From the IMG/VR virus record IMGVR_UViG_2778261227_000014: a DNA stretch of 35,370 bases. One strand, given 5' to 3'. The position numbers were made by a program, and so were the translations under genes. Below, in pieces: positions 1 to 35,370 of this stretch; position 1 is the stretch's first letter; each line of letters opens with the position of its first letter. Source of the stretch: a virus. Taxonomy: Duplodnaviria > Heunggongvirae > Uroviricota > Caudoviricetes. The notes under the pieces are model-generated. The model was not told the DNA's origin and made no database searches. It was given only the letters and a program-made list of their open reading frames with translations.

Positions 1-62
1 GGTATCCGTTCTGCTGAAGTGTCATGGCGTTGATTTTACGGTGACTCTTCGACAGTGAAAAG

Positions 63-83
63 AAAAAAGGCCGCAGAGCGGCC
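63..83 (-). terminator. Candidate rho-independent terminator for the leftward int-side operon
   Basis: Hairpin ggccgc-aga-gcggcc at 69-83 preceded on the + strand by A6 (63-68), i.e. followed by a T-run on the - strand, about 110 bp downstream of the 193 stop. Confidence 0.4.
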
Positions 84-192: not shown

Positions 193-741
193 TCATCCAA
201 CAAATTTAGCAACAAATACAGCAACCGCCGCCGTGAAAATGGTTGTGCATACTGGCACAATAATGCCACTCCAACGCCACTTCGTATTATCATCAACCTT
301 GTCAAACCGCCGATTCATCTCATCCATAATCTTGTCAAAGCGTTTATCCATCGCTTCGGTAATCTCACCCTTCAGGCTGTTAATGTCTGATTTGATCTGA
401 TCTTTCAGGTGAGCTGTATCAGATTTAAGCTCCCCTTTCAGATTCGCAATATCGCATTTAAGATCACCTTTCAGATGTGCTGTGTCTGCTTTGAGCTCAC
501 CTTTCACCTCACCAACATCGGCTTTGGTTGAAAGGTTTGTAGTGCGTTCAGCAAGCGTCGCAAGGTCGTTTCTTGTTAGCGATAAATCACCTTCGAGTCG
601 CTCAATTCGCCTTTCAAGTTTATCTGACATTCCACCTCCACTATTACCGCCTCCTCCACTGAAAGATGGGTCATCATCAAAAGAGTTGCTAATGCCATCA
701 CGAATGGGGGTTACGCCATGCCCGCTTTTAGCACACGCCAC
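193..741 (-). CDS. Coiled-coil protein with about 11-residue repeats (LKGELKxDxAH) and a C-terminal hydrophobic anchor; function unknown
   Basis: Six-frame ORF; GTG at 741 immediately follows the upstream stop; alternative ATG at 630 preceded by a GGAGG-like stretch (which also encodes a Gly-rich linker). Repeats LKGELKADTAH/LKGDLKCDIAN/LKGELKSDTAH/LKDQIKSDINS, C-terminal IIVPVCTTIFTAAVAVFVAKFVG. Confidence 0.5.
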   Translation of the reverse strand: MACAKSGHGVTPIRDGISNSFDDDPSFSGGGGNSGGGMSDKLERRIERLEGDLSLTRNDLATLAERTTNLSTKADVGEVKGELKADTAHLKGDLKCDIANLKGELKSDTAHLKDQIKSDINSLKGEITEAMDKRFDKIMDEMNRRFDKVDDNTKWRWSGIIVPVCTTIFTAAVAVFVAKFVG

Positions 742-1140
742 TCAGATTCCCTCCCAAACTATATATCCTTTATCTCTTGCCCAACGAACAACTGTGTGAG
801 CTGTATATGTGGATGTGAAGCCGCAATAAGAACATGACACTTCATACCGGAAATTGTAGATGCTAATGGGGCCGTTATCCTTACGTATGGGAGTGACATA
901 TTCCCAATCTTTTGAACCATCATAATCATCAAGTTCATGATCAGTGCCGTGAACAACCGTATGTGGAACAAATAGATCTGGGCGTCCACACGAGAGACAA
1001 GAGGTTTTAGCACCTCTATCTGTGAGAAATTGAATAAATAATTTGGGCGTAATTTTCTGCAAGGCCTGCACATGCTCACGTTCCTTATCATTAAGAGGCC
1101 TGCCAAGATATAGAAAATCATCAAATTTAAGAGGCTTCAT
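742..1140 (-). CDS. Cys-rich (CxxC...CxxC) hypothetical protein, possible zinc-ribbon
   Basis: ORF with ATG at 1140 preceded by GGAG 9-12 nt upstream; the track start at 1155 is TTG. Overlaps the integrase 3' end by 14 nt. Contains CLSCG and CSYCG motifs. Confidence 0.5.
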   Translation of the reverse strand: MKPLKFDDFLYLGRPLNDKEREHVQALQKITPKLFIQFLTDRGAKTSCLSCGRPDLFVPHTVVHGTDHELDDYDGSKDWEYVTPIRKDNGPISIYNFRYEVSCSYCGFTSTYTAHTVVRWARDKGYIVWEGI

Positions 1141-2119
1141 ATACGGCTTCTCCAAGAGGATTAAATTTCACCGCATCCTGCAAGTAATCCGGCGCAAGAT
1201 GGGCATAAATCATCGTTGTCTGAATCTTTGCGTGCCCCAGAATTTTCTGGAGCGTCAGAATATTGCCGCCGTTCATCATGAAATGACTGGCGAAGGTGTG
1301 GCGCAGCGCATGAACAGCCTGGCCGTCAGGAACATCAGGTGCGACCGTTTTGATGACATCGCGAACCAATGAATAATCCAGCGTCGGAAACACCAGTTTC
1401 CCGCCCCGTTTTTTGATCTTTTCAAACAGGCTTTCAGAAATAGGAACGGTACGGTTTTTGCTGTTCTTCGTTTTTGAAAAAGTGATTCGACAATGAAGAA
1501 CGCGGCGCTGCTCCAGTGCCGCTACCTCGCCCCATCGCGCCCCGGTCGATAAAAGGATTTCGACAGCCAGCCGCTCATCGGGATTTTCAGCCAGTGCATC
1601 CAGCAACTGAACACATTCAGACTTACTCAGATATCCCATTTCGCGTTCGTTAACCTTCATTCCTTTCAGGCCTTGAATGGGGTTATCGTTAAGAAAATGG
1701 CCGGATGAGATGAGTGCGGTAAACATCGCGCTTAACGCCCCAATCTCTCGATTTATGGTGCTGGGCTGTATCCCCTGCTCTATCCTGGACACACGTAGCT
1801 CGGTGAGCATCGTTGTATTAAGTTTATGCACGCACGGGTCATCCATTGCCTCACTCAAGCGCAGCAATTTAAGGCGCGTGTTATGCCCTGACTTCATTAG
1901 CTGGCCGTGGTATTTCCACCACAAGTCAATAAGCACTGACAGCGGACGGCGATCAATGGAGTTTCCTTTCCACTCATTGTTATGCAGTTGTGCCAGCACC
2001 CACCGCTCATATAAAACTGCATCTGATTTCGTTTTAAATTTTTTTCGAATGCGTTTGCCTTTACGCCCCTCTGGGCGCATGTCAAGAAGATACCCTCCCG
2101 GAATTGATTTTATGCTCAT
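1127..2119 (-). CDS. int: Tyrosine recombinase, P2-type integrase
   Basis: 330 aa from ATG at 2119 (the track start at 2269 is an upstream in-frame extension). N-terminus MSIKSIPGGYLLDMRPEGRKGKRIRKKF resembles P2 Int; catalytic region contains ARWGE, HALRHTFASHF and LGHAKIQTTMIYAHL, the R...HxxR...Y signature of the family. Confidence 0.9.
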   Translation of the reverse strand: MSIKSIPGGYLLDMRPEGRKGKRIRKKFKTKSDAVLYERWVLAQLHNNEWKGNSIDRRPLSVLIDLWWKYHGQLMKSGHNTRLKLLRLSEAMDDPCVHKLNTTMLTELRVSRIEQGIQPSTINREIGALSAMFTALISSGHFLNDNPIQGLKGMKVNEREMGYLSKSECVQLLDALAENPDERLAVEILLSTGARWGEVAALEQRRVLHCRITFSKTKNSKNRTVPISESLFEKIKKRGGKLVFPTLDYSLVRDVIKTVAPDVPDGQAVHALRHTFASHFMMNGGNILTLQKILGHAKIQTTMIYAHLAPDYLQDAVKFNPLGEAVYEAS

Positions 2120-3890: not shown

Positions 3891-3958
3891 ATAAGAAAAC
3901 GTGAAAACCATCCGTATTAACGGAGGTATTCGCACACGCAAATAACGGAGATACAAAA

Positions 3959-4369
3959 ATGCACGCAAAAGAAGAAGGTATCATCAGAGCACTGAAAGAA
4001 ATTTCAAAGACAGAAAACGAAGTAGCGAAAAAAGCCGTGGCAAATGCACATATGGACGTCGCAACCCACACACTGATAGTCGCAAGAGTCACGGCAGAAG
4101 CAGCCGAAATTATCGCAAAACAGGATGCTGAACTGGCGGTTCTCAGAACACAACCAGTCACCGGACTGGATTTGTCTAACACCGGACGCCTTATTTACAC
4201 AATTGGCTCGGAGCTACAGCGATACACCATTATCGCCGGATTACAGGATAAATACCTGATCACTCCTCACCCCATAAGGGAATCAGAAATTCTGACAAAT
4301 CTCCGCCTGATAGAACGCTCTCAAGCTGTATTCATTGATGACGCGCAACGTGCCGTATTTAACGCATAG
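3959..4369 (+). CDS. Hypothetical early protein
   Basis: 136-aa ORF, GGAG 8 nt upstream of the ATG. Confidence 0.55.
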   Translation: MHAKEEGIIRALKEISKTENEVAKKAVANAHMDVATHTLIVARVTAEAAEIIAKQDAELAVLRTQPVTGLDLSNTGRLIYTIGSELQRYTIIAGLQDKYLITPHPIRESEILTNLRLIERSQAVFIDDAQRAVFNA

Positions 4370-4392
4370 GGTTACTGGACAAAGGGGGCGCA

Positions 4393-4859: not shown

Positions 4860-4924
4860 GCACCATCAACCACCAGGAATTACATCCATCATCATTTCCG
4901 AGATGCCAACAGGCTCTTCACAGT

Positions 4925-5392
4925 TCAGAAACTGCACAACCAGCAAATTAACCTTTCGGAGTAACGCAAATGTTCGCTGGCAGACAACCCAACAGATGCA
5001 CTCGCTTTGTTTTTTGCGGGCCTGACAAACGCTTTCATGTATGCGCTGTTCGTTTCTTCCAGATGCAGAATGCGCTCAATGAGGCGTTCAGTACTCATGA
5101 AATCCCTTTGCGTAATCAGACGAAGGTAGCTCTGTTTCTGCCAGCACGCCCATTCGGCAACGCACTCAAACTTACTGCAAAACCAGGAAAAAACAAAAAA
5201 CGCCAGCCCGCAAAGACTCATCAGGACGGGGAAACCTACGAGAAGAAAGGAGAATACCGCAGCAATCAGTGCCCCGGCGCGCAACACGGCAGCGGCTTTA
5301 TTGCTGAGTATGAAAACCATCTCTTCCAGCCAGTAGCTGTACCACAGATGGAAAAAAATCTTCTTGTCTGCTTGCTCCATAGCAACAGGCAT
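4925..5392 (-). CDS. Membrane protein (2 predicted TM helices plus C-terminal soluble domain), function unknown; antisense to the early operon
   Basis: ATG at 5392 with GGAGG 5-6 nt upstream on the - strand (the track start at 5398 is TTG). Hydrophobic stretches AAVLRAGALIAAVFSFLLVGFPVLM and LCGLAFFVFSWF. The overlapping + ORF 4970-6085 has non-protein-like composition. Confidence 0.55.
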   Translation of the reverse strand: MPVAMEQADKKIFFHLWYSYWLEEMVFILSNKAAAVLRAGALIAAVFSFLLVGFPVLMSLCGLAFFVFSWFCSKFECVAEWACWQKQSYLRLITQRDFMSTERLIERILHLEETNSAYMKAFVRPAKNKASASVGLSASEHLRYSERLICWLCSF

Positions 5393-5449
5393 AAACAACC
5401 TCCATTGTTAATAAACGCCGCTATCCTTCGGCGCATTCCATTTTTGCGC

Positions 5450-5485
5450 CGCGATTATACATACTTCAGCACGCAACACAAAAAC
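5450..5485 (-). promoter_or_regulatory. Candidate sigma70 promoter for the antisense membrane-protein gene
   Basis: On the - strand TTGCGT ... TGTATATAAT (perfect TATAAT, + coordinates 5454-5459, with upstream TG); spacing to the -35-like hexamer is short, so extended -10 usage is assumed. Confidence 0.35.
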
Positions 5486-5547
5486 CGCTTGCCAGCGCTC
5501 GTTGAGTCGGGTTACATTTCCGCTGCACCTCATAAAACGGGTGCCGG

Positions 5548-5733
5548 GATTCTCAACCCGCTGACTACACACGCGCACAACCGCGCCAGCGGTTTTTTTG
5601 TGCGTACTGTATTGCCACGTCTTATTCGCGTCAGAATTATGGCGGGGCGTACGGGGCCGACTTCGGTCGGGCCGGGATCGTGTGTAGCCGGTGTTGAGAA
5701 CCCCGTACGTCTCGCCACCCCGAGATTCTCAAC
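5548..5733. repeat. Three copies of the GATTCTCAAC motif (two direct, one inverted) around a GC-rich stem-loop region
   Basis: gattctcaac at 5548-5557 and 5724-5733; inverted copy gttgagaa at 5693-5700; cgtacgggg (5648-5656) complementary to ccccgtacg (5701-5709), enclosing the ccgac-ttcg-gtcgg hairpin at 5657-5670. Confidence 0.5.
5578..5599 (+). terminator. Candidate intrinsic terminator inside the early region
   Basis: aaccgc-gcca-gcggtt hairpin followed by T7 (ggtttttttg) on the + strand. Confidence 0.45.
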
Positions 5734-5778
5734 TCTGGATGGTGAGTTTTCAAAACTTACTATACACGAGGCCACGTC

Positions 5779-6009
5779 ATGGCAAACCGCAAGCAACAGC
5801 GCGCCCGCGCTGAGCGTATTCACATCCGCAGCGAAATCAACCGCAGACTTTTTCGCGCAACACGCGTCGCGCAAATCATGCACATCAATATGTTGCATGA
5901 GCGCAGCCACGCACTATCAAACATTTATTCCGCCTCTGTTTTCAGCTATCTGGCGGATGATCTGCACGAGCTTCAACAGCTCATCCAGCAGCAAAACAAA
6001 CTCCATTAA
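5779..6009 (+). CDS. Small basic protein, hypothetical
   Basis: 76-aa ORF, GAGG upstream of the ATG; N-terminus MANRKQQRARAERIHIRSEINRRLF is arginine-rich. Confidence 0.5.
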   Translation: MANRKQQRARAERIHIRSEINRRLFRATRVAQIMHINMLHERSHALSNIYSASVFSYLADDLHELQQLIQQQNKLH

Positions 6010-10316: not shown

Positions 10317-10628
10317 ATGACGACACCAACCAGAAGAATAAGTTTCTATCTGAAGCCAGCTGCCGTCAAGAACGAAGGAGAAGCATGCGCCTGGCTGGAC
10401 AGCCTTACACCAGAAGCCCGCAAAAGCGGCCAACGCGTGGCTTTTCTGGCCGGGCTGGCACTTCTGAAGACGAATCCGGCAGAGGCTTACCGACTGGCCG
10501 CATGGGCTGATGATGAGATGTTACCTGTGACACAAATCAGCTCAAAAAAGTTTGAAGCACAGTCTGCACCAGTGGCTAAGATAACCAGCCAGATGGCTGG
10601 GAATATCCGGGCGTTATTTCCTGAGTAA
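10317..10628 (+). CDS. parR: ParR/StbB-like DNA-binding adaptor protein
   Basis: 103 aa directly downstream of the parM-like gene; ISFYLKP, AFLAGLALLKTNPAEAY and IRALFPE parallel R1 ParR (IAFKLNP, AALTAGLALYRQDP, LRSLFPKE, from memory); AGGAG RBS. Confidence 0.65.
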   Translation: MTTPTRRISFYLKPAAVKNEGEACAWLDSLTPEARKSGQRVAFLAGLALLKTNPAEAYRLAAWADDEMLPVTQISSKKFEAQSAPVAKITSQMAGNIRALFPE

Positions 10629-10642
10629 AAGCATCTGCGCGA

Positions 10643-10684
10643 AAAATGCTCACGTTTATAGAGAAAATGCTCACGTTTATAGAG
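10643..10684. repeat. Perfect tandem duplication of a 21-bp unit just downstream of the parR-like gene
   Basis: aaaatgctcacgtttatagag at 10643-10663 repeated at 10664-10684. Confidence 0.7.
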
Positions 10685-10777
10685 ACAGTATCATTCCATT
10701 TGGCACACTTACTTCAATAATCGATCTGTTAAACAAATAGATTGTCTATTATCTATCGATTAAAACGATCAATTATC

Positions 10778-10806
10778 TTGACAGTAATGTGCCTTTTTGT
10801 AAGATC
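10778..10806 (+). promoter_or_regulatory. Candidate sigma70 promoter
   Basis: Perfect TTGACA at 10778-10783, 16-17 bp spacer, TAAGAT at 10800-10805; points toward the 11014 gene. Confidence 0.4.
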
Positions 10807-10856
10807 GTTCGCATTGTGAGCGACAAGATAATTGCGCGGCATTGTCCATGCAAAAC

Positions 10857-10882
10857 GCCCCAATAGCAGCAACTATTGGGGC
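10857..10882 (+). other. 10-bp-stem hairpin (possible 5'UTR structure or binding site)
   Basis: gccccaatag-cagcaa-ctattggggc, perfect inverted repeat. Confidence 0.4.
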
Positions 10883-11013
10883 GTAAAACTCGGTCGGACT
10901 CACTTAACCTGATATGCGTGCCTTCCGAAGTAAATCAAAATGTGCGTCGTATATTTTATTGCTTACACGCACCTCTGTAAAGGCACGCATATTTTTCCTA
11001 TGAGGTAAATAAA

Positions 11014-11283
11014 GTGCGGGCTAAAACAGGTATTTGCAAGAACCCTCATCGTTATAATCCAACATTTCTGTCTCTCCCTGAATATCAAGGACAAGAAGGT
11101 CGGCACAAATGCGCTGCCTGTGCTTTTGAGCTAGGCATAAAAGATGCGCTTGAAGGACGCGCTATGGCTCAGAATGATTTAGTTTTAGCTAACATTCCGT
11201 TTAGCCAGGCTGGAACTGTAAGGCACAGAGATGCCTATGAAGCATATGTTCGTGGTTGGCGATTAATACACAGCAACAATTGA
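11014..11283 (+). CDS. Small hypothetical protein with Cys/His cluster
   Basis: 89 aa from GTG at 11014 with GAGG 8 nt upstream; CKNPHRYNP...HKCAACAF; flanked by its own promoter-like region and a downstream terminator. Confidence 0.45.
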   Translation: MRAKTGICKNPHRYNPTFLSLPEYQGQEGRHKCAACAFELGIKDALEGRAMAQNDLVLANIPFSQAGTVRHRDAYEAYVRGWRLIHSNN

Positions 11284-11291
11284 TACTTTTG

Positions 11292-11316
11292 AAGCGCCGA
11301 TAAGGCGCTTTTTTTG
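11292..11316 (+). terminator. Rho-independent terminator
   Basis: agcgcc-gataa-ggcgct hairpin followed by T7 directly after the 11283 stop. Confidence 0.7.
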
Positions 11317-11707
11317 TTTGCACGATAGTGCACAAGTTTGCACAATTTTTTTGAACGACTTTTTGTACTTCCGGCCCGCGTGGTGGCTGGATCCGTCAAG
11401 GATCCGTACGTGCACAAAAAAACGCGTTTTTTCTGCGCGCAGGTGACGGGGGAACAGCCCGCGTTTCAGGGGGTAAATAGCATTCCCTGAACGATGTCGC
11501 AGAGATACAACAGAATGGCTGTATTTCTCACGCTGAGCGTGAAAAAGACGTGAGGGCTTTTGATTTAGGTAAGGCCGTCAAAATCGCACTGAGACGGCGA
11601 GAACATGCAGTCAACGCGGTGGGATTGCGTAAGAGTCTGACTGTCGATGATGGCAATCAGCAGAAAAGCATCGTGAAATTATCTGACTGATACAGGAGCT
11701 GGAGAGT

Positions 11708-22443: not shown

Positions 22444-22966
22444 TTCACTGTTACCGCCATCAGCCAGCAGTTTCATGCGTTGCGCCGAAGCTGTCGGAGC
22501 GCGCATTACAGACATCCCGGTAGACCTCAACACGCTGTGGTCGCCGGACACCTGCCCGGTGCACCTGCTGCCTTATCTCGCCTGGGCATTTTCCGTTGAC
22601 CGCTGGGATCGCAACTGGCCGGAAGAGACAAAGCGACAGGTTATTCGTGATGCATGGCTGATACACCGACACAAAGGGACCATCAGCGCACTGCGCAGGG
22701 CCATTGAGCCGCTGGGATACCTCATTCGCGTGTCTGAGTGGTGGGAGTTCGGCGGAGAACCGGGAACATTTACCGTTGAAGTCGGCACGCTGGACAGTGG
22801 CGTGACGGAGGAAATGTATCTGGAAATGGAGCGGTTGATTGCTGATGCCCGCCCGGTCAGCCGCCACATGACAGGGCTGAATATCATTCAGGAGATCCCG
22901 GGGGATATTTTCGCGGCGGCAGCAACTTACGACGGTGAAGTCATTACCATTTATCCGGACTATTAA
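22436..22966 (+). CDS. I: Baseplate protein, P2 gpI-like
   Basis: ATG at 22436 overlapping the J stop; about 176 aa as in P2 I. Confidence 0.8.
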
Positions 22967-22968
22967 GC

Positions 22969-24948
22969 ATGAGTACCACAACACGAAAATTTAAAACCAT
23001 TATCACTGATACTGGTGCCAAAAAATTAGCTCAGGCTGCCGCGCCAGATGGTAATCCTGTCCGCCTGACTCATATGGCCGTGGGCGACGGTGGCGGCACG
23101 TTGCCCACACCAGACAGTAAGCAGACCCATCTGGTGCATGAGGTGTGGCGACATACTGTTAATCGCGTCATCCTGGACGCAACACATCAGAACCGCATTA
23201 TTGCAGAGCTGGTTATCCCTCCTGAAACGGGCGGGTTCTGGATCCGGGAAATTGGTGTATTTGATGAGCACGGCGATTTGATCGCGGTGGGCAATACTGC
23301 CGAAAGTTACAAGCCAACCGTTGCCGAAGGATCCGGACGTGCACAAACATTTCGCACCATTCTGACCGTATCCAGCACTGCCACCGTGGCGCTTACCGTG
23401 GATAACACCATGGTTATGGCCACAGTGGATTACGTGAATGACAAACTGAAAGAGCATGAACAGTCACGACGTCACCCGGACGCCTCGCTGACCGCAAAAG
23501 GCTTTGTTCAACTCAGTAGCGCCACCAACAGCACGTCTGAAGCACTGGCCGCAACGCCGAAAGCGGTCAAGGCAGCCTATGACCTTGCTAACGGGAAATA
23601 TACCGCTCAGGATGCCACGACGGCACGAAAAGGAATAGTCCAGCTCAGTAGCGCCACCAACAGCACGTCTGAAGCACTGGCCGCAACACCGAAAGCGGTA
23701 AAGACAGCATATGACCTTGCTAACGGGAAATATACCGCTCAAGACGCTACGACAGCACAAAAAGGGATTGTCCAGCTAAGCAGCGCGACTAACAGCACAT
23801 CTGAAACGCTTGCCGCGACACCGAAAGCAGTGAAAGCAGCTAATGACAATGCGAATGGTCGGGTACCTTCTGCCCGTAAGGTGAATGGTAAGGCGCTTTC
23901 AGCGGATATAACACTGACACCGAAAGATATTGGTACGCTTAACTCAACAACTATGTCATTCAGCGGTGGTGCTGGTTGGTTCAAATTAGCAACGGTAACC
24001 ATGCCGCAGGCGAGTTCTGTTGTTTCAATTACGTTGATTGGTGGGGCTGGATATAACGTCGGTTCACCTCAACAGGCAGGTATATCTGAACTTGTTTTGC
24101 GTGCAGGTGATGGTAATCCGAAGGGGATTACTGGTGCTTTATGGCAGCGCACATCGGCAGGGTTTACAAATTTTGCCTGGGTCAATACATCTGGTGATAC
24201 TTACGATATTTACGTTGCAATCGGAAATTATGCGACTGGTGTAAATATTCAATGGGATTATACCAGTAATGCCAGCGTAACGATTCATACATCACCAGCA
24301 TATTCTGCTAATAAGCCGGAAGGGTTAACGGACGGTACAGTTTATTCACTCTATACGCCATCAGAGCAGTTTTATCCGCCTGGCGCACCAATCCCGTGGC
24401 CATCGGATACCGTTCCGTCTGGTTATGCCCTGATGCAGGGGCAGACTTTTGACAAATCTGCCTACCCGAAACTTGCAGTCGCTTATCCGTCAGGCGTGAT
24501 CCCTGATATGCGTGGCTGGACGATTAAGGGCAAGCCCGCCAGTGGTCGTGCCGTATTGTCTCAGGAACAGGACGGCATTAAATCGCACACCCACAGCGCC
24601 AGCGCATCCAGTACGGATTTGGGGACGAAAACCACATCGTCGTTTGATTACGGAACTAAATCCACAAATAACACCGGAGCACATACACACAACTTTGCTT
24701 ACAACAATACTTCAGCATACGCAGAAACTCCCGGTACCGGTGGTGGAATGCATGCAACTAACACAAGCAAGACAGCAAGTAATCGCGTATTAAGCGCAGG
24801 AGCTCATACTCACACAGTAGCAATAGGTGCGCATACACATACGCTCGCTATTGGTTCGCACACACACACCATTACCATTGCCGCTTATGGCAACGCGGAA
24901 AACACCGTAAAAAACATCGCATTTAACTATATTGTGAGGCTTGCATAA
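22969..24948 (+). CDS. H: Tail fibre protein, P2 gpH-like, with internal tandem repeats and C-terminal His-Thr repeats
   Basis: 659 aa; conserved N-terminal anchor region; three tandem copies of about 40 aa; C-terminal [31 protein letters not shown]. Confidence 0.85.
23497..23856 (+). repeat. About 3 x 120-bp tandem repeat inside the tail fibre gene
   Basis: Near-identical units encoding (K/R)G(F/I)[12 protein letters not shown](A/T)LAATPKAVK(A/T)[17 protein letters not shown]. Confidence 0.8.
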
Positions 24949-25547
24949 TGGCATTCAGAATGAGTGAACAACCACGAACCATAAAAATTTATAATCTGCT
25001 GGTCGGAACCAATGAATTTATTGGTGAAGGTGATGCATACATTCCACCTCATACAGGTCTACCTGCAAATAGTACTGATATTGCTCCGCCAGATATTCCA
25101 GCTGGCTTCGTGGCTATTTTCAACAGTGATGAGGCATCGTGGCATCTTGTTGAAGACCATCGGGGTAAAACAGTTTATGACGTGGCATCAGGGGACGCGT
25201 TATTTATTTCTGAACTCGGCTCATTACCGGAAAATGTCACTTGGTTATCCCCGGAAGGGGAGTTTCAGAAGTGGAACGGCACAACGTGGGTGAAAGATGC
25301 AGAAGCAGAAAAAGTGTTCCGGATACGGGAGGCGGAAGAAACAAAAAACAGCCTCATGCAGGTAGCCAGTGAGCATATTTCGCCACTTCAAGATGCCGTA
25401 GATTTGAATATTGCAACAGAGGAAGAAACATCGTTACTGGTGGCATGGAAGAAGTATCGAGTGCTGCTGAACCGTGTTGATACATCAAGAGCACCGGATA
25501 TTGAGTGGCCAGCTTCCCCAGTGGAATCAAGGAGTAAACAAGCATAA
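24948..25547 (+). CDS. G: Tail fibre assembly chaperone, P2 gpG-like
   Basis: 199 aa immediately after H (TAATG overlap). Confidence 0.8.
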
Positions 25548-25641
25548 AGGCTTTCATTTCAAACCATTGTAGTACAGTTTTTTGTATAGTACCCTGCTCA
25601 TTTCGGATGACATGTGTGATTTGGAATTTCAGGGTACCATT

Positions 25642-26820
25642 ATGAATGTTATTTCATCATTAAAACAGCTTAACAGACAGCGAAATATTAAAACAAAAAA
25701 GATAAAGACGAAGGCCAGACTGGCATTTCTAAAAATGCGATACAGAAGGAAAACATCATTACAGCCGAATAGTTATAAAACAGTGTGCATTTTCATGCAC
25801 ATGCAAGCCATTGGTGACGGCATCGTTACCTCAGGGTTTATTAAACAACTTCAAAAATCCGGTATGGTGGTATATGTGATAGCACCTTCAAGAGTATCAT
25901 TCCTCTTTACTGATATTGTTGGCGTGGATGCCTTTATATCTTACGAGAAAAATAAATTTAACGAACTAAAAGCAAAGATAAAAAAACTGAATGTAGATCT
26001 TGTTGTTGACTTCTCAAATTTTGATAACACAGCGATAACCAGATTGCAAACACTACATTTACTTAGACCTAAACACTCTATCTGTTTTAATCATCCTGCC
26101 GTAACTATTTTTGATACAAATATAATCGATAATCGTTCCATTCACACATCTGAAAGAATGAAAAAAGTTTTATCTTTACTAAAGATAAAAAATAATAATT
26201 ATGCTGCAGCACTTAATTTTGACAACAAAACATATGAACCAGCAAATATTGTTGCAAATGAATTCAGGAAGAAAAACAAAAAATTAGTTATATTTAACCC
26301 TTATGGCTCTCAGAATAGCAGAACCTTATCTGATGAACAGATAAACAAAGTACTAGCTTACCTTAATAACCTTAAGGGATATCACACAATAGTTTTTAAT
26401 ATGGGAAAACAGATTAATCACAATGGATTGGATAATGTGTCTCTATCTCCATTTTCTGATGCCGGATGTTCATTTGCATTGGTTCGCCATGCTGATTTTG
26501 TTATAACTGTAGATACTGCCATTGTACATTTAGCCAGTGCATTAAACATTAGACAATACTGTATATATAATAACAGAATGCATGAAGGAAAATTCGAAAA
26601 TAATATTGTGTGGGGGCCAAACAGCAAATTAGCGACTCAACTCACCACATCCGAACATCTAAGGTCTGAAGGGGGCGACGATATGCATAAATTCGACATA
26701 ATGATCTTAATTAATGCTATCAAACAAGATTTGACAAACGATATACCGAATTACCACTCGGATTTAGGTTGTAAAAATAGATCCAGAAACCCAGAATTAG
26801 AAAGTAGCAATTCTTTATAA
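25642..26820 (+). CDS. Glycosyltransferase family 9-like (heptosyltransferase-like) moron; start uncertain (ATG 25612 or 25642; the track start 25582 is TTG)
   Basis: Strongly AT-rich versus flanking phage genes; N-terminal VCIFMHMQAIGDGIVTSGFIKQL resembles the GT9 ILVIRLxAIGDxxxTxP box, and C-terminal FVITVDTAIVHLASALNIRQY resembles the GT9 NDSGPMHLAAAL box. Sits at the P2 Z/fun position. Confidence 0.55.
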   Translation: MNVISSLKQLNRQRNIKTKKIKTKARLAFLKMRYRRKTSLQPNSYKTVCIFMHMQAIGDGIVTSGFIKQLQKSGMVVYVIAPSRVSFLFTDIVGVDAFISYEKNKFNELKAKIKKLNVDLVVDFSNFDNTAITRLQTLHLLRPKHSICFNHPAVTIFDTNIIDNRSIHTSERMKKVLSLLKIKNNNYAAALNFDNKTYEPANIVANEFRKKNKKLVIFNPYGSQNSRTLSDEQINKVLAYLNNLKGYHTIVFNMGKQINHNGLDNVSLSPFSDAGCSFALVRHADFVITVDTAIVHLASALNIRQYCIYNNRMHEGKFENNIVWGPNSKLATQLTTSEHLRSEGGDDMHKFDIMILINAIKQDLTNDIPNYHSDLGCKNRSRNPELESSNSL

Positions 26821-26916
26821 AGTAGAAACCTCAACAGTTTTATCAGGACCTACGATATATTATATAACAACAAGCCGCCCATTACCCAATATGAGGGTAT
26901 TAGCGGCAATGTAAAA

Positions 26917-33963: not shown

Positions 33964-34629
33964 ATGAATATGCAAATTTTTATCGCACCAGCAGCCACAG
34001 TTGCTGCAGTCTGCCTTGCTGCATATTTTGCTTTACGAAATGAACGTAAAAAGAAAGCACTTGAGATTAGAACAACTCAACTAGATCGAATATCAGAGCT
34101 AGTAAACCGAGCATCTACCAATTTGATGCAATATACAGGTACTCTTGCCTCTATACTGGAAGCGCACGCCAAAGATAATTATCTACCGAACAAAAAATTT
34201 GACATTAATGTAATTAGCAAATGGAAAGATTGCCTCGATGAGAGTGAGGTCTGGGCGATTGATAGACAGCAACTAAGAACATGTCAGCACAGTCTGGAGT
34301 TTCATCGTGAAAAAGAATGGGCTGAATGGAAAAAAATAATTCCACCATTACTTGATAAAATTGACCAATTTTTTCTCATATCTAAGCCAGGGCAACCTGT
34401 TACGTTTATAAATGGCCAAAACAAAACAGCTGATGAACTACTTGTTTTCTCAAGATATTTGAGAAAACAAACAGCAGAAATTGAATCAGTACGTCAGCTG
34501 TTACTTTCTCAAATGAGAGAGGAATTCATCGAGTTAACTAGCTTTGAACCTGTCACAATGTTTAGCTTATTTAAATCAATAAAGAAAAATGTCATGCAAT
34601 TTTTCTGTATCAGTGCTCTTAAAAATTGA
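33964..34629 (+). CDS. AT-rich moron: protein with N-terminal TM helix, function unknown
   Basis: 221 aa, AAGGA RBS 8 nt upstream; N-terminal MNMQIFIAPAATVAAVCLAAYFAL is hydrophobic; composition distinct from flanking phage genes; followed by a terminator. Confidence 0.6.
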   Translation: MNMQIFIAPAATVAAVCLAAYFALRNERKKKALEIRTTQLDRISELVNRASTNLMQYTGTLASILEAHAKDNYLPNKKFDINVISKWKDCLDESEVWAIDRQQLRTCQHSLEFHREKEWAEWKKIIPPLLDKIDQFFLISKPGQPVTFINGQNKTADELLVFSRYLRKQTAEIESVRQLLLSQMREEFIELTSFEPVTMFSLFKSIKKNVMQFFCISALKN

Positions 34630-34644: not shown

Positions 34645-34674
34645 AACCCCAGTGTTAAACTGGGGTTATTCTTG
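34645..34674 (+). terminator. Rho-independent terminator after the moron
   Basis: aaccccag-tgttaaa-ctggggtt hairpin followed by the T-rich attcttg. Confidence 0.55.
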
Positions 34675-34778: not shown

Positions 34779-35039
34779 ATGTTCCGTTGTCCGCTTTGTG
34801 GCGCATCTGCCCGTATCCGCACCAGTCGTCCGGAAAATGATTCAAACACCGTGCGGCAAAAGTATTACCAGTGTAACAACCTGGAATGCGGCGTATGCTT
34901 CTCAACACTGGAAGCTTTCCATAAATTCACATCGAAACACGCCTCCGGCATCCACTCTTCAGAAGATATCCCGTGGCATGAGCTGCCAGCTTCACACAGG
35001 GGAAACAATCAGATGAGCTTGCCTTTACCTCAGAATTAA
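34779..35039 (+). CDS. ogr: Late gene transcriptional activator, Ogr/Delta-type zinc-finger protein
   Basis: MFRCPLCGASARIRTSR...YYQCNNLECGVCF matches the Ogr C2C2 zinc-finger pattern (P2 Ogr MFHCPLC...RTSR...YHQC.N..C, from memory); GGGAGG RBS. Confidence 0.8.
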   Translation: MFRCPLCGASARIRTSRPENDSNTVRQKYYQCNNLECGVCFSTLEAFHKFTSKHASGIHSSEDIPWHELPASHRGNNQMSLPLPQN

Positions 35040-35099
35040 CAGGCAGAATTGCCGGAGTAACAAAAACGCGATAGATTACGCGCGGGTGCCTTTCGGCTG

Positions 35100-35312
35100 A
35101 TGGTCGGAGGGAATACCCGAAGGCCAGATGTGGAAAGGCCCCGGAAAACATCTCTGTTTAACCGAGGCCCTAACCGCATTACCTTGACAAGTGAAAGGTT
35201 AGCGCCTCTCCGGAAAAGGAGCAAGTGCTATGTCGCAAAAATCGCTTACGGCCATCACGTTCTGCGTGACGGCAATCCTCATCATCTGGATGTTGCACGG
35301 TTCGCTGTGTGA
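35100..35312 (+). CDS. Possible mok-like reading frame overlapping the hok-like gene
   Basis: 70-aa ORF overlapping the hok-like start in another frame, as in hok/mok loci; weak evidence. Confidence 0.3.
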   Translation: MVGGNTRRPDVERPRKTSLFNRGPNRITLTSERLAPLRKRSKCYVAKIAYGHHVLRDGNPHHLDVARFAV

Positions 35313-35370
35313 AATACGGATGAGCTTCTGGGGAGCGGAGTTTGCGGCGTTCTTACAGTGTAAGCAGTAA
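35230..35370 (+). CDS. hok: Hok/Gef-family type I toxin (small membrane peptide)
   Basis: 46 aa MSQKSLTAITFCVTAILIIWMLHGSLCEIRMSFWGAEFAAFLQCKQ: TM helix followed by the SLCEIR signature and AAF motif typical of Hok/Gef; GGAG RBS; the stop codon is the last 3 nt of the window. Confidence 0.7.
   Translation: MSQKSLTAITFCVTAILIIWMLHGSLCEIRMSFWGAEFAAFLQCKQ

Follow-up and report, generated by a model that had tools for sequence, protein, structure and literature searches.

The last part of the window, which is the whole stretch of 35,370 nucleotides analyzed here, very probably holds a complete type I cassette of the hok/sok type, which forms accessory DNA (a moron) between ogr and attR in a P2-like E. 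coli prophage of the P88/Xuanwuvirus type integrated between btuC and ihfA. The toxin gene occupies the final 141 nt (35230–35370, + strand, ATG to TAA), and the encoded 46-residue peptide, MSQKSLTAITFCVTAILIIWMLHGSLCEIRMSFWGAEFAAFLQCKQ, belongs to Hok cluster 72. A preceding sequence-only reading had proposed a Hok/Gef-family type I toxin locus beside ogr on account of this peptide, with its transmembrane helix and its SLCEIR and AAF motifs. All of these features are present, and the Pfam HOK_GEF match, the PHROG 251 match, and the alignment of the leader agree with the proposed family. The size of the module, ∼390 bp, follows from the limits of similarity between copies of the locus in P2-type and lambdoid phages, which starts at the −35 box of hok and ends at the GGCACCC of the distal element fbi.

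The peptide matches Pfam HOK_GEF (PF01848) over its residues 7–44 with 29.9 bits against a cut-off of 22 (E 4e-7), and PHROG 251, ‘MokW-like host killing’, with an E value of 1e-22. Two NCBIfam models give scores under their curated cut-offs, 34 bits against 89 for the HokA equivalog NF007290 and 21.6 bits against 73 for the generic Hok subfamily NF007279, and on these profile scores the peptide is not HokA and is placed on a separate branch of the Hok family. Seven residues are kept in more than 80% of 1264 Hok peptides, namely M1, C16, T18, L30, C31, E32, and E41 in the numbering of the R1 logo (bioRxiv 10.1101/2025.08.07.668861); all seven are found here as M1, C12, T14, L26, C27, E28, and E37, and six of them are invariant across HokC, HokB, and the copy in phage 933W, HokB having Y in the column of C27. 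Kyte-Doolittle means over 19 residues reach ∼2.0 in residues 4–27, corresponding to an N-terminal membrane helix. A Shine-Dalgarno sequence, AAGGAG, is read at 35216–35221 (+ strand), 8 nt before the ATG. None of the 86 relatives examined has a broken open reading frame, amino-acid changes are few, and the 3′ third of the frame is nearly invariant among them at the nucleotide level. No PADLOC model matches the peptide or the neighboring 221-residue open reading frame. The sequence-only reading had noted that a peptide devoid of toxicity would speak against its assignment; the identical 46-residue peptide 72_1621 belongs to the set cloned for toxicity assays in a published survey, in which 42 of 45 tested Hok homologs are toxic and the three named exceptions do not include 72_1621 (bioRxiv 10.1101/2025.08.07.668861).

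Directly upstream of the cassette, the core phage genes end with one that encodes an ogr-like late-gene activator (34779–35039, + strand; Pfam Ogr_Delta 52.4 bits; PHROG 603). At the opposite end of the window, the left prophage junction is found as an attL core, AAAGAAAAAAGGCCGCAGAGCGGCC, at 59–83, derived from the ihfA terminator. The att core is the 25-bp overlap seen when the empty btuC-ihfA site of K-12 is aligned to the lysogen E. coli O127:H6 E2348/69, in which the prophage sits between btuC and ihfA; the core is present in one exact copy in the window and in two copies in E2348/69. The last 731 nt of the window are 99.9% identical to the E2348/69 prophage, and several cargo blocks differ elsewhere between the two prophages. 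Because the last 291 nt match E2348/69 exactly, the 3′ flank of that genome is a fair proxy for the DNA following the cassette. When the search for attR is extended to the right in this way, as had been suggested from the sequence alone, the att core is met 262 nt beyond the hok stop. The window itself ends exactly at the hok stop codon, leaving the 3′ UTR absent, and this end is understood from the many IMG/VR provirus contigs that are cut at the same base.

The earlier reading had left two locations side by side, a phage-carried module and chromosomal DNA flanking the attachment site. A hok locus native to the chromosome and only adjoining the attachment site is suggested by the right junction falling outside the window and by the several resident hok loci held by E. 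coli chromosomes, but the empty K-12 site passes from btuC directly to ihfA with no hok between them, no att core lies between 35040 and 35084 in this strain or anywhere else in the window after 59–83, the next copy being the one past hok in E2348/69, and the cassette is included in sequenced phage genomes. With attL in the window, attR beyond hok in E2348/69, and the cassette inside phages such as P88, the chromosomal alternative is practically untenable and falls, whereas the phage-carried alternative stands: judged by its sequence context, the cassette is phage cargo, not flanking chromosome.

The distribution of the locus extends well beyond this prophage. The 731-nt segment is found at a coverage of at least 80% in 1156 of 5426 complete E. 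coli genomes, about a fifth, and is always annotated in them as an ogr/Delta-like protein plus a Hok/Gef family protein. The ogr-hok DNA occurs at 94–97% identity in six sequenced phages (P88, 520873, 500465-2, PhiR44_2, Chuche, and Shae_phiSM); P88 and other Xuanwuvirus members carry it, and Shae_phiSM is a Citrobacter phage. Among 86 related loci, ogr is directly upstream in 58 and the remainder are in different contexts; two related loci carry two unlike hok genes in tandem. The hok region is also found in lambdoid phages of the Stx-converting type (933W, Sp5/VT2-Sakai), at 83% nucleotide and 74% peptide identity; its place there is between lom and L0129, and AF125520 gives no annotation for it.

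Alignment with the hok loci of K-12, a comparison that the sequence-only reading had recommended, places the 150 nt upstream of hok in register with the hokC and hokB leaders, and also with the 933W locus. The predicted hok promoter (35049–35077, + strand) consists of a −35 box TTGCCG at 35049, a 17-nt spacer, and a −10 box TAGATT at 35072; it agrees with the consensus at 8 of 12 positions, and its place is conserved in 933W (TTGCCC/TAAATT), hokC, and hokB. The promoter calls made here for hok and for the antisense RNA are based on homology and a relaxed scan, since a consensus scan with a threshold of 9/12 reports neither. The putative 5′ end of the hok mRNA is G 35084, position 1 of the Rfam model RF01794, where the element tac, GGGUGCCUUUCGGCU, begins (35084–35098, + strand). 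It is followed by ucb, GUGGAAAGGCCCCGG (35130–35144, + strand), whose partner is the GAGG region while the mRNA is closed and tac once it is open, and by a conserved GAGG at 35164–35167, located 66 nt from the hok AUG. The target hairpin of the processed mRNA, sokT, spans 35164–35208 (+ strand) and is formed by pairing of GAGGC-CUAACC with GGUUAG-GCCUC of dcb, GGUUAGCGCCUC (35197–35208). Within the variable target loop (∼35170–35196), the 8-nt apical loop at 35183–35190, CUUGACAA, bears a YUNR motif, which is present at the apical-loop place in 44 of 45 distinct variants according to a manual reading of the per-row motif list, the automated tally having matched another site. The distal elements lie past the window end, and fbi, the terminator, and attR are all read from E2348/69: a GC hairpin directly follows the hok stop, fbi, AAGGCACCC, lies 57–65 nt after it, and the terminator is a hairpin with a U-run. 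The RNA boundaries of the cassette are those indicated by homology and predicted folds.

RF01794 matches the locus at 35084–35243 over model positions 1–157 with 48.4 bits (E 2e-9), which does not reach the gathering score of 59; K-12 hokC and hokB reach 118 and 110 bits. Although named ‘sok’, the model is hok-sense, matching the hokC/hokB strand of K-12 and lying opposite to the annotated sokC and sokB. Other Rfam matches in the region (mir-268, STnc180, and snoRNAs) have E values of 0.04–5 and are dismissed as chance.

The antisense RNA expected from the sequence alone within 35040–35230, and there left unmapped, can be placed by alignment with the annotated K-12 sokC and sokB, which predicts a Sok-like RNA starting at G 35188 on the − strand and running to ∼35128, with ends inferred. 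Its layout is a 5′ tail of ∼9–17 nt, a GC-rich hairpin, and UUUCC; the fold has an energy of −26.4 kcal/mol (z −4.1), and the first 6 nt of the predicted RNA are complementary to the target loop. An antisense promoter, which the same reading had proposed to look for, is predicted at 35224–35196 (− strand), with a −35 box TTGCTC (35224–35219), a 17-nt spacer, and a −10 box TAACCT (35201–35196). It matches the consensus at 6 of 12 positions and is the sole correctly placed candidate in the relaxed scan. The −10 box is invariant in relatives, the −35 box is TTGACT in the 933W type, and the distance of 7 nt from the −10 box to the start reproduces the geometry of annotated sokB. The predicted promoter overlaps the hok ribosome-binding site.

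Fold-back elements, likewise put forward as a check from the sequence alone, are recovered as the tac-fbi and tac-ucb pairings, both with compensatory changes. The structure tests used 45 distinct relatives. The full-length RNA, 409 nt with its 3′ end taken from E2348/69, has a minimum free energy of −177.8 kcal/mol (z −8.1) in a fold that is closed by a 15-bp tac-fbi helix. This helix is paired in 96% of cells with four compensated pairs, a value reached in none of 500 shuffles, and tac-ucb is paired in 98% of cells with four compensated pairs at the same tac positions as those of tac-fbi. The target hairpin, GAGGC-CUAAC with GGUUAG-GCCUC, is paired in 99% of cells, and the RNAalifold consensus contains both the tac-ucb pairing and the sokT hairpin. 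When the RNA is truncated at nt 322, the predicted fold gives up tac-fbi and adopts tac-ucb together with the sokT hairpin. In the closed form, AAGGAG is predicted to pair with an upstream CUCC (mRNA nt 125–128, window 35208–35211). For the helices that would hide the hok ribosome-binding site when the mRNA is closed, pairing reaches 99.6% and, in the anti-SD helix, 80%, and no compensatory changes occur in them among the relatives tested; masking of this site in the closed form accordingly has the standing of a prediction from folding. Variation along the module peaks in two places, the loop of the Sok hairpin and the target loop together with the 5′ tail of Sok, which fits divergence of target specificity, and the near-invariant 3′ part of the hok frame fits a constraint by RNA structure, through modeled pairing with the hok start region.

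Comparison with the homologous systems of R1 and K-12, combined with the predicted RNA structures, allows a mechanism to be proposed in which a constitutive promoter would yield a hok mRNA of ∼400 nt whose 5′ tac pairs with the 3′ fbi. This tac-fbi lock would hold the mRNA in an inert fold with both the Sok target and the hok ribosome-binding site buried. Slow trimming from the 3′ end would remove fbi and allow tac to pair with ucb, and the released GAGGC-CUAAC would then pair with dcb, forming the hairpin that displays the Sok target loop and loosening the hok translation start. As long as the unstable Sok-like RNA of ∼60 nt is present, its 5′ end would bind the target loop, leading to cleavage of the duplex, and no toxin would be made. 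After transcription stops or the locus is lost, Sok would decay first, the 46-residue Hok would be made, and its insertion into the inner membrane would kill or arrest the cell. Since the subfamily has no conserved mok leader frame, RNA refolding and RNase III-type decay, not translational coupling, are probably the direct means of control in this model.

The question of mok deserves closer consideration, as an overlapping mok-like frame had been part of the sequence-only reading. Such a frame of 70 codons is indeed open here and overlaps hok (35100–35312, + strand), which is the length given for mok of plasmid R1, in which the mok AUG lies ∼8 nt after GAGG (PMC9841398). That this locus works exactly as R1 does would be in keeping with this length, with the occurrence of GAGG 35164–35167 in the structural context of the R1 mok ribosome-binding site, and with the two in-frame codons that fall within the Sok target, TTG at 35184 and ATT at 35178. 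TTG 35184 is the sole in-frame canonical start within the target in this sequence, but it is located 16 nt after GAGG, and conservation of the frame is where the earlier proposal fails. The comparison covered 56 unique variants of the reading frame with its 150-nt leader. With ATG, GTG, and TTG counted as starts, 27 of them have no canonical-start frame reading into hok (six of these 27 have a near-cognate codon in an open frame, and a short or non-canonical leader frame is conceivable), and not one of the 56 has a start codon 5–13 nt after GAGG. Small indels displace the frames against each other between variants, and in leaders of the 933W type every frame is closed by stops between the target and hok. 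Because the frame is broken or startless in about half of the relatives and no start is suitably spaced after GAGG, the 35100–35312 frame is probably fortuitous and not a conserved gene, and operation exactly as in R1 is unlikely. A bolder reading, which is offered tentatively and regarded as possible but somewhat doubtful, is that cluster-72 hok loci, the present one among them, are without mok altogether and that GAGGC acts purely as an RNA switch, making these loci a mok-independent structural variant of hok/sok control. GAGGC would then, in the trimmed mRNA, capture the dcb/anti-SD segment (GCCUCUCC) and so free the hok ribosome-binding site, binding of Sok to the loop would reverse this capture and trigger cleavage, and the hypervariable Sok tail and target loop would prevent cross-talk between co-resident cassettes.

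As to biological role, a circuit that fires on a stop of transcription or on loss of the locus fits prophage/host addiction and abortive infection equally, and the cassette is most likely a selfish stabilization or abortive-infection module. It might also aid lysis after induction, as does hokW-sokW of the Stx2 phage Sp5, in which sokW RNA vanishes after mitomycin C while HokW builds up in the inner membrane; with hokW-sokW lysis is earlier and phage release twofold higher after induction, and release is halved when the pair is absent (PMC8621323). The same Stx phages additionally bear a cluster-72 hok like the present one, which lends some weight to the proposal that the main role is that of a lysis helper at prophage induction, not addiction or exclusion. 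However, the Sp5 toxin, the one prophage Hok with a functional study, is a different Hok of 51 residues in cluster 35, and the Sp5 functional data are for this reason not directly transferable and serve as an analogy; moreover, the present cassette has predicted promoters of its own, no P2 late-promoter dyad (TGT-N12-ACA) is found near it, and it has no link to the lysis genes, which are ∼13 kb away, so a main role in lysis appears rather unlikely. Far less probable is a decayed, non-functional hok remnant like several of the K-12 loci. Inactivation is common among the chromosomal hok loci of K-12, the presence of IS186 beside hokC being one example, and the promoter matches given above, 8/12 for hok and 6/12 for sok, are weak. 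Against decay stand the intact reading frame with few amino-acid changes in every one of the relatives, the near-invariance of its 3′ part at the nucleotide level, the retention of all regulatory pairings with compensatory changes in tac-fbi and tac-ucb, the abundance of the locus among complete E. coli genomes, and the toxicity reported for the identical peptide when expressed (bioRxiv 10.1101/2025.08.07.668861), which together make a remnant very improbable.

The gene as such is already known, being recorded as Hok/Gef in RefSeq, as ‘MokW-like host killing’ in phage records, and within a catalogued Hok cluster; a search for literature linking P2-like phages, ogr, and hok gave nothing relevant. 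For annotation, the present analysis is of use in assigning the cassette to prophage cargo, and in noting that provirus boundary callers cut at the hok stop, so that fbi, the terminator, and the stretch of ∼260 bp that leads to attR are lost. It also indicates that the Rfam ‘sok’ model marks the hok-sense leader and that the PHROG name ‘MokW-like’ is a misnomer, misleading for this peptide because hokW is a different Hok at a different locus. The mildly novel thread is the apparent absence of a conserved mok in an abundant, phage-associated Hok cluster, which bears on how generally the translational-coupling model of R1 applies.

Compared with known systems, the closest protein relatives are those of the survey by Escalera-Maurer et al., which reports an enrichment of hok in prophages and counts 6290 Hok homologs in IMG/VR (bioRxiv 10.1101/2025.08.07.668861). 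The reading frame of 72_1621 differs from that of the window by one base (GTGC in place of GTGT), and 72_1589 is the Stx-phage copy; both are members of a ‘high-abundance cluster’ and both were cloned for toxicity assays. The survey concerns the coding sequence only, leaving Mok, Sok, and mRNA ends unassigned and the ogr-att location undiscussed. The hokW-sokW locus of Sp5 (PMC8621323) resembles the present one in being a prophage-borne type I locus of the hok/sok kind and is a working toxin-antitoxin pair. Its toxin (MKQQKAM...) is HokD-like and encoded elsewhere; the possibility that hokW-sokW is itself the 74%-identical Stx-phage copy is rejected by the primer sequences and the 51-residue length, hokW-sokW and the cluster-72 copy being found in the same phages.

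The leaders of K-12 hokC/sokC and hokB/sokB correspond base for base to that of the window at tac, ucb, GAGG, dcb, and the hok start, and the annotated sokC and sokB map onto window positions 35128–35188. They differ in having annotated mokC and mokB with an ATG inside the Sok target, a frame that is not conserved here, and protein identity to HokC and HokB is 24–26%. With hok/sok of plasmid R1 (PMC9841398) the locus shares a small membrane toxin with the pattern C..T...LCE...E and an mRNA of ∼400 nt closed by 5′-3′ tac-fbi pairing and converted to tac-ucb after 3′ trimming, as predicted here. Further common features are the GAGG/ucb/dcb switch with a comparable distance from GAGG to the hok AUG (66 nt here, ∼70 nt in R1), the protective GC hairpin after the stop codon, and, again as predictions for the present locus, an antisense RNA of ∼60 nt aimed at a loop upstream of hok and transcribed from a promoter lying partly over the hok ribosome-binding site. 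The locus departs from R1 in the absence of a conserved mok frame, in having no start codon where R1 has one, and in scoring under the curated Rfam and NCBIfam thresholds; its toxin has 46 residues as against 52 in R1, and it is carried by a prophage instead of a plasmid.

Among relatives, the hok module varies most in the loop of the Sok hairpin and in the Sok tail together with the loop that it targets (window 35144-35156 and 35170-35196). Across the last third of the hok ORF (35328-35370) the nucleotide sequence is almost invariant, synonymous sites included. The Rfam model RF01794 ("sok antitoxin") matches the hok-sense leader at 35084-35243 of the window, as it does in the K-12 hokC and hokB loci (L005, 402-554; L006, 467-618), on the strand opposite to the annotated sokC and sokB. 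The strand of such a match is not to be taken as the Sok strand. The hok -10 box is overlapped by a minus-strand hairpin that has a T-run after it (GCGCGTAATCTATCGCGT TTTTGTTACT, 35066-35083) and could act as a terminator of longer antisense transcripts. The 933W-type sequence differs from the window at this site, and no equivalent hairpin could be drawn in it by eye.

The attL core, an exact 25-bp sequence (AAAGAAAAAAGGCCGCAGAGCGGCC, window 59-83), derives from the ihfA terminator, and the window opens with 58 nt of sequence flanking attL towards btuC. In many IMG/VR proviruses (L011, L013, L017 and others), as in the window (35370), the contig ends exactly at the hok stop codon, indicating that boundary prediction cuts off the hok 3' UTR with its fbi element and terminator, and that ∼260 bp of phage DNA extending to attR are also lost.

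At the cargo position of window 10628-11319 the E2348/69 prophage (L003, 11116-14832) carries an AAA ATPase and an S8 peptidase, whereas the window holds a different insert of ∼700 nt. Other blocks swapped between the two lie at window 193-1153, 3939-4382, 4864-5967 and 22879-26915. A 221-aa ORF on the plus strand (33964-34629), flanked by the gpD-like tail gene on one side and ogr on the other, has a GC content of 0.36, compared with 0.52 for the window, and searches of Pfam, NCBIfam, PHROG and PADLOC returned no match to it; a GC-rich inverted repeat (AACCCCAGTGTTAAACTGGGGTT, ∼34646-34668) lies 3' of this ORF, which looks like a further accessory gene (moron).

In two of the compared loci the cluster-72 hok is closely preceded by another hok-like ORF that differs from it, at ∼2575-2725 in L052 (e.g., MSSNNIFILIICIIITLSIWILYGSLCELRALMWGDEFTDFLQCK) and at ∼2345-2650 in L083 (e.g., MKPPQLKGVICLAV...); these are tandem hok loci. 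The cluster-72 hok cassette of Stx phages lies, without annotation, between lom and L0129 (L007, phage 933W, AF125520, 45490-45799). The published hokW-sokW locus belongs to a different Hok cluster, and Stx phages hold the cluster-72 cassette in addition to it.
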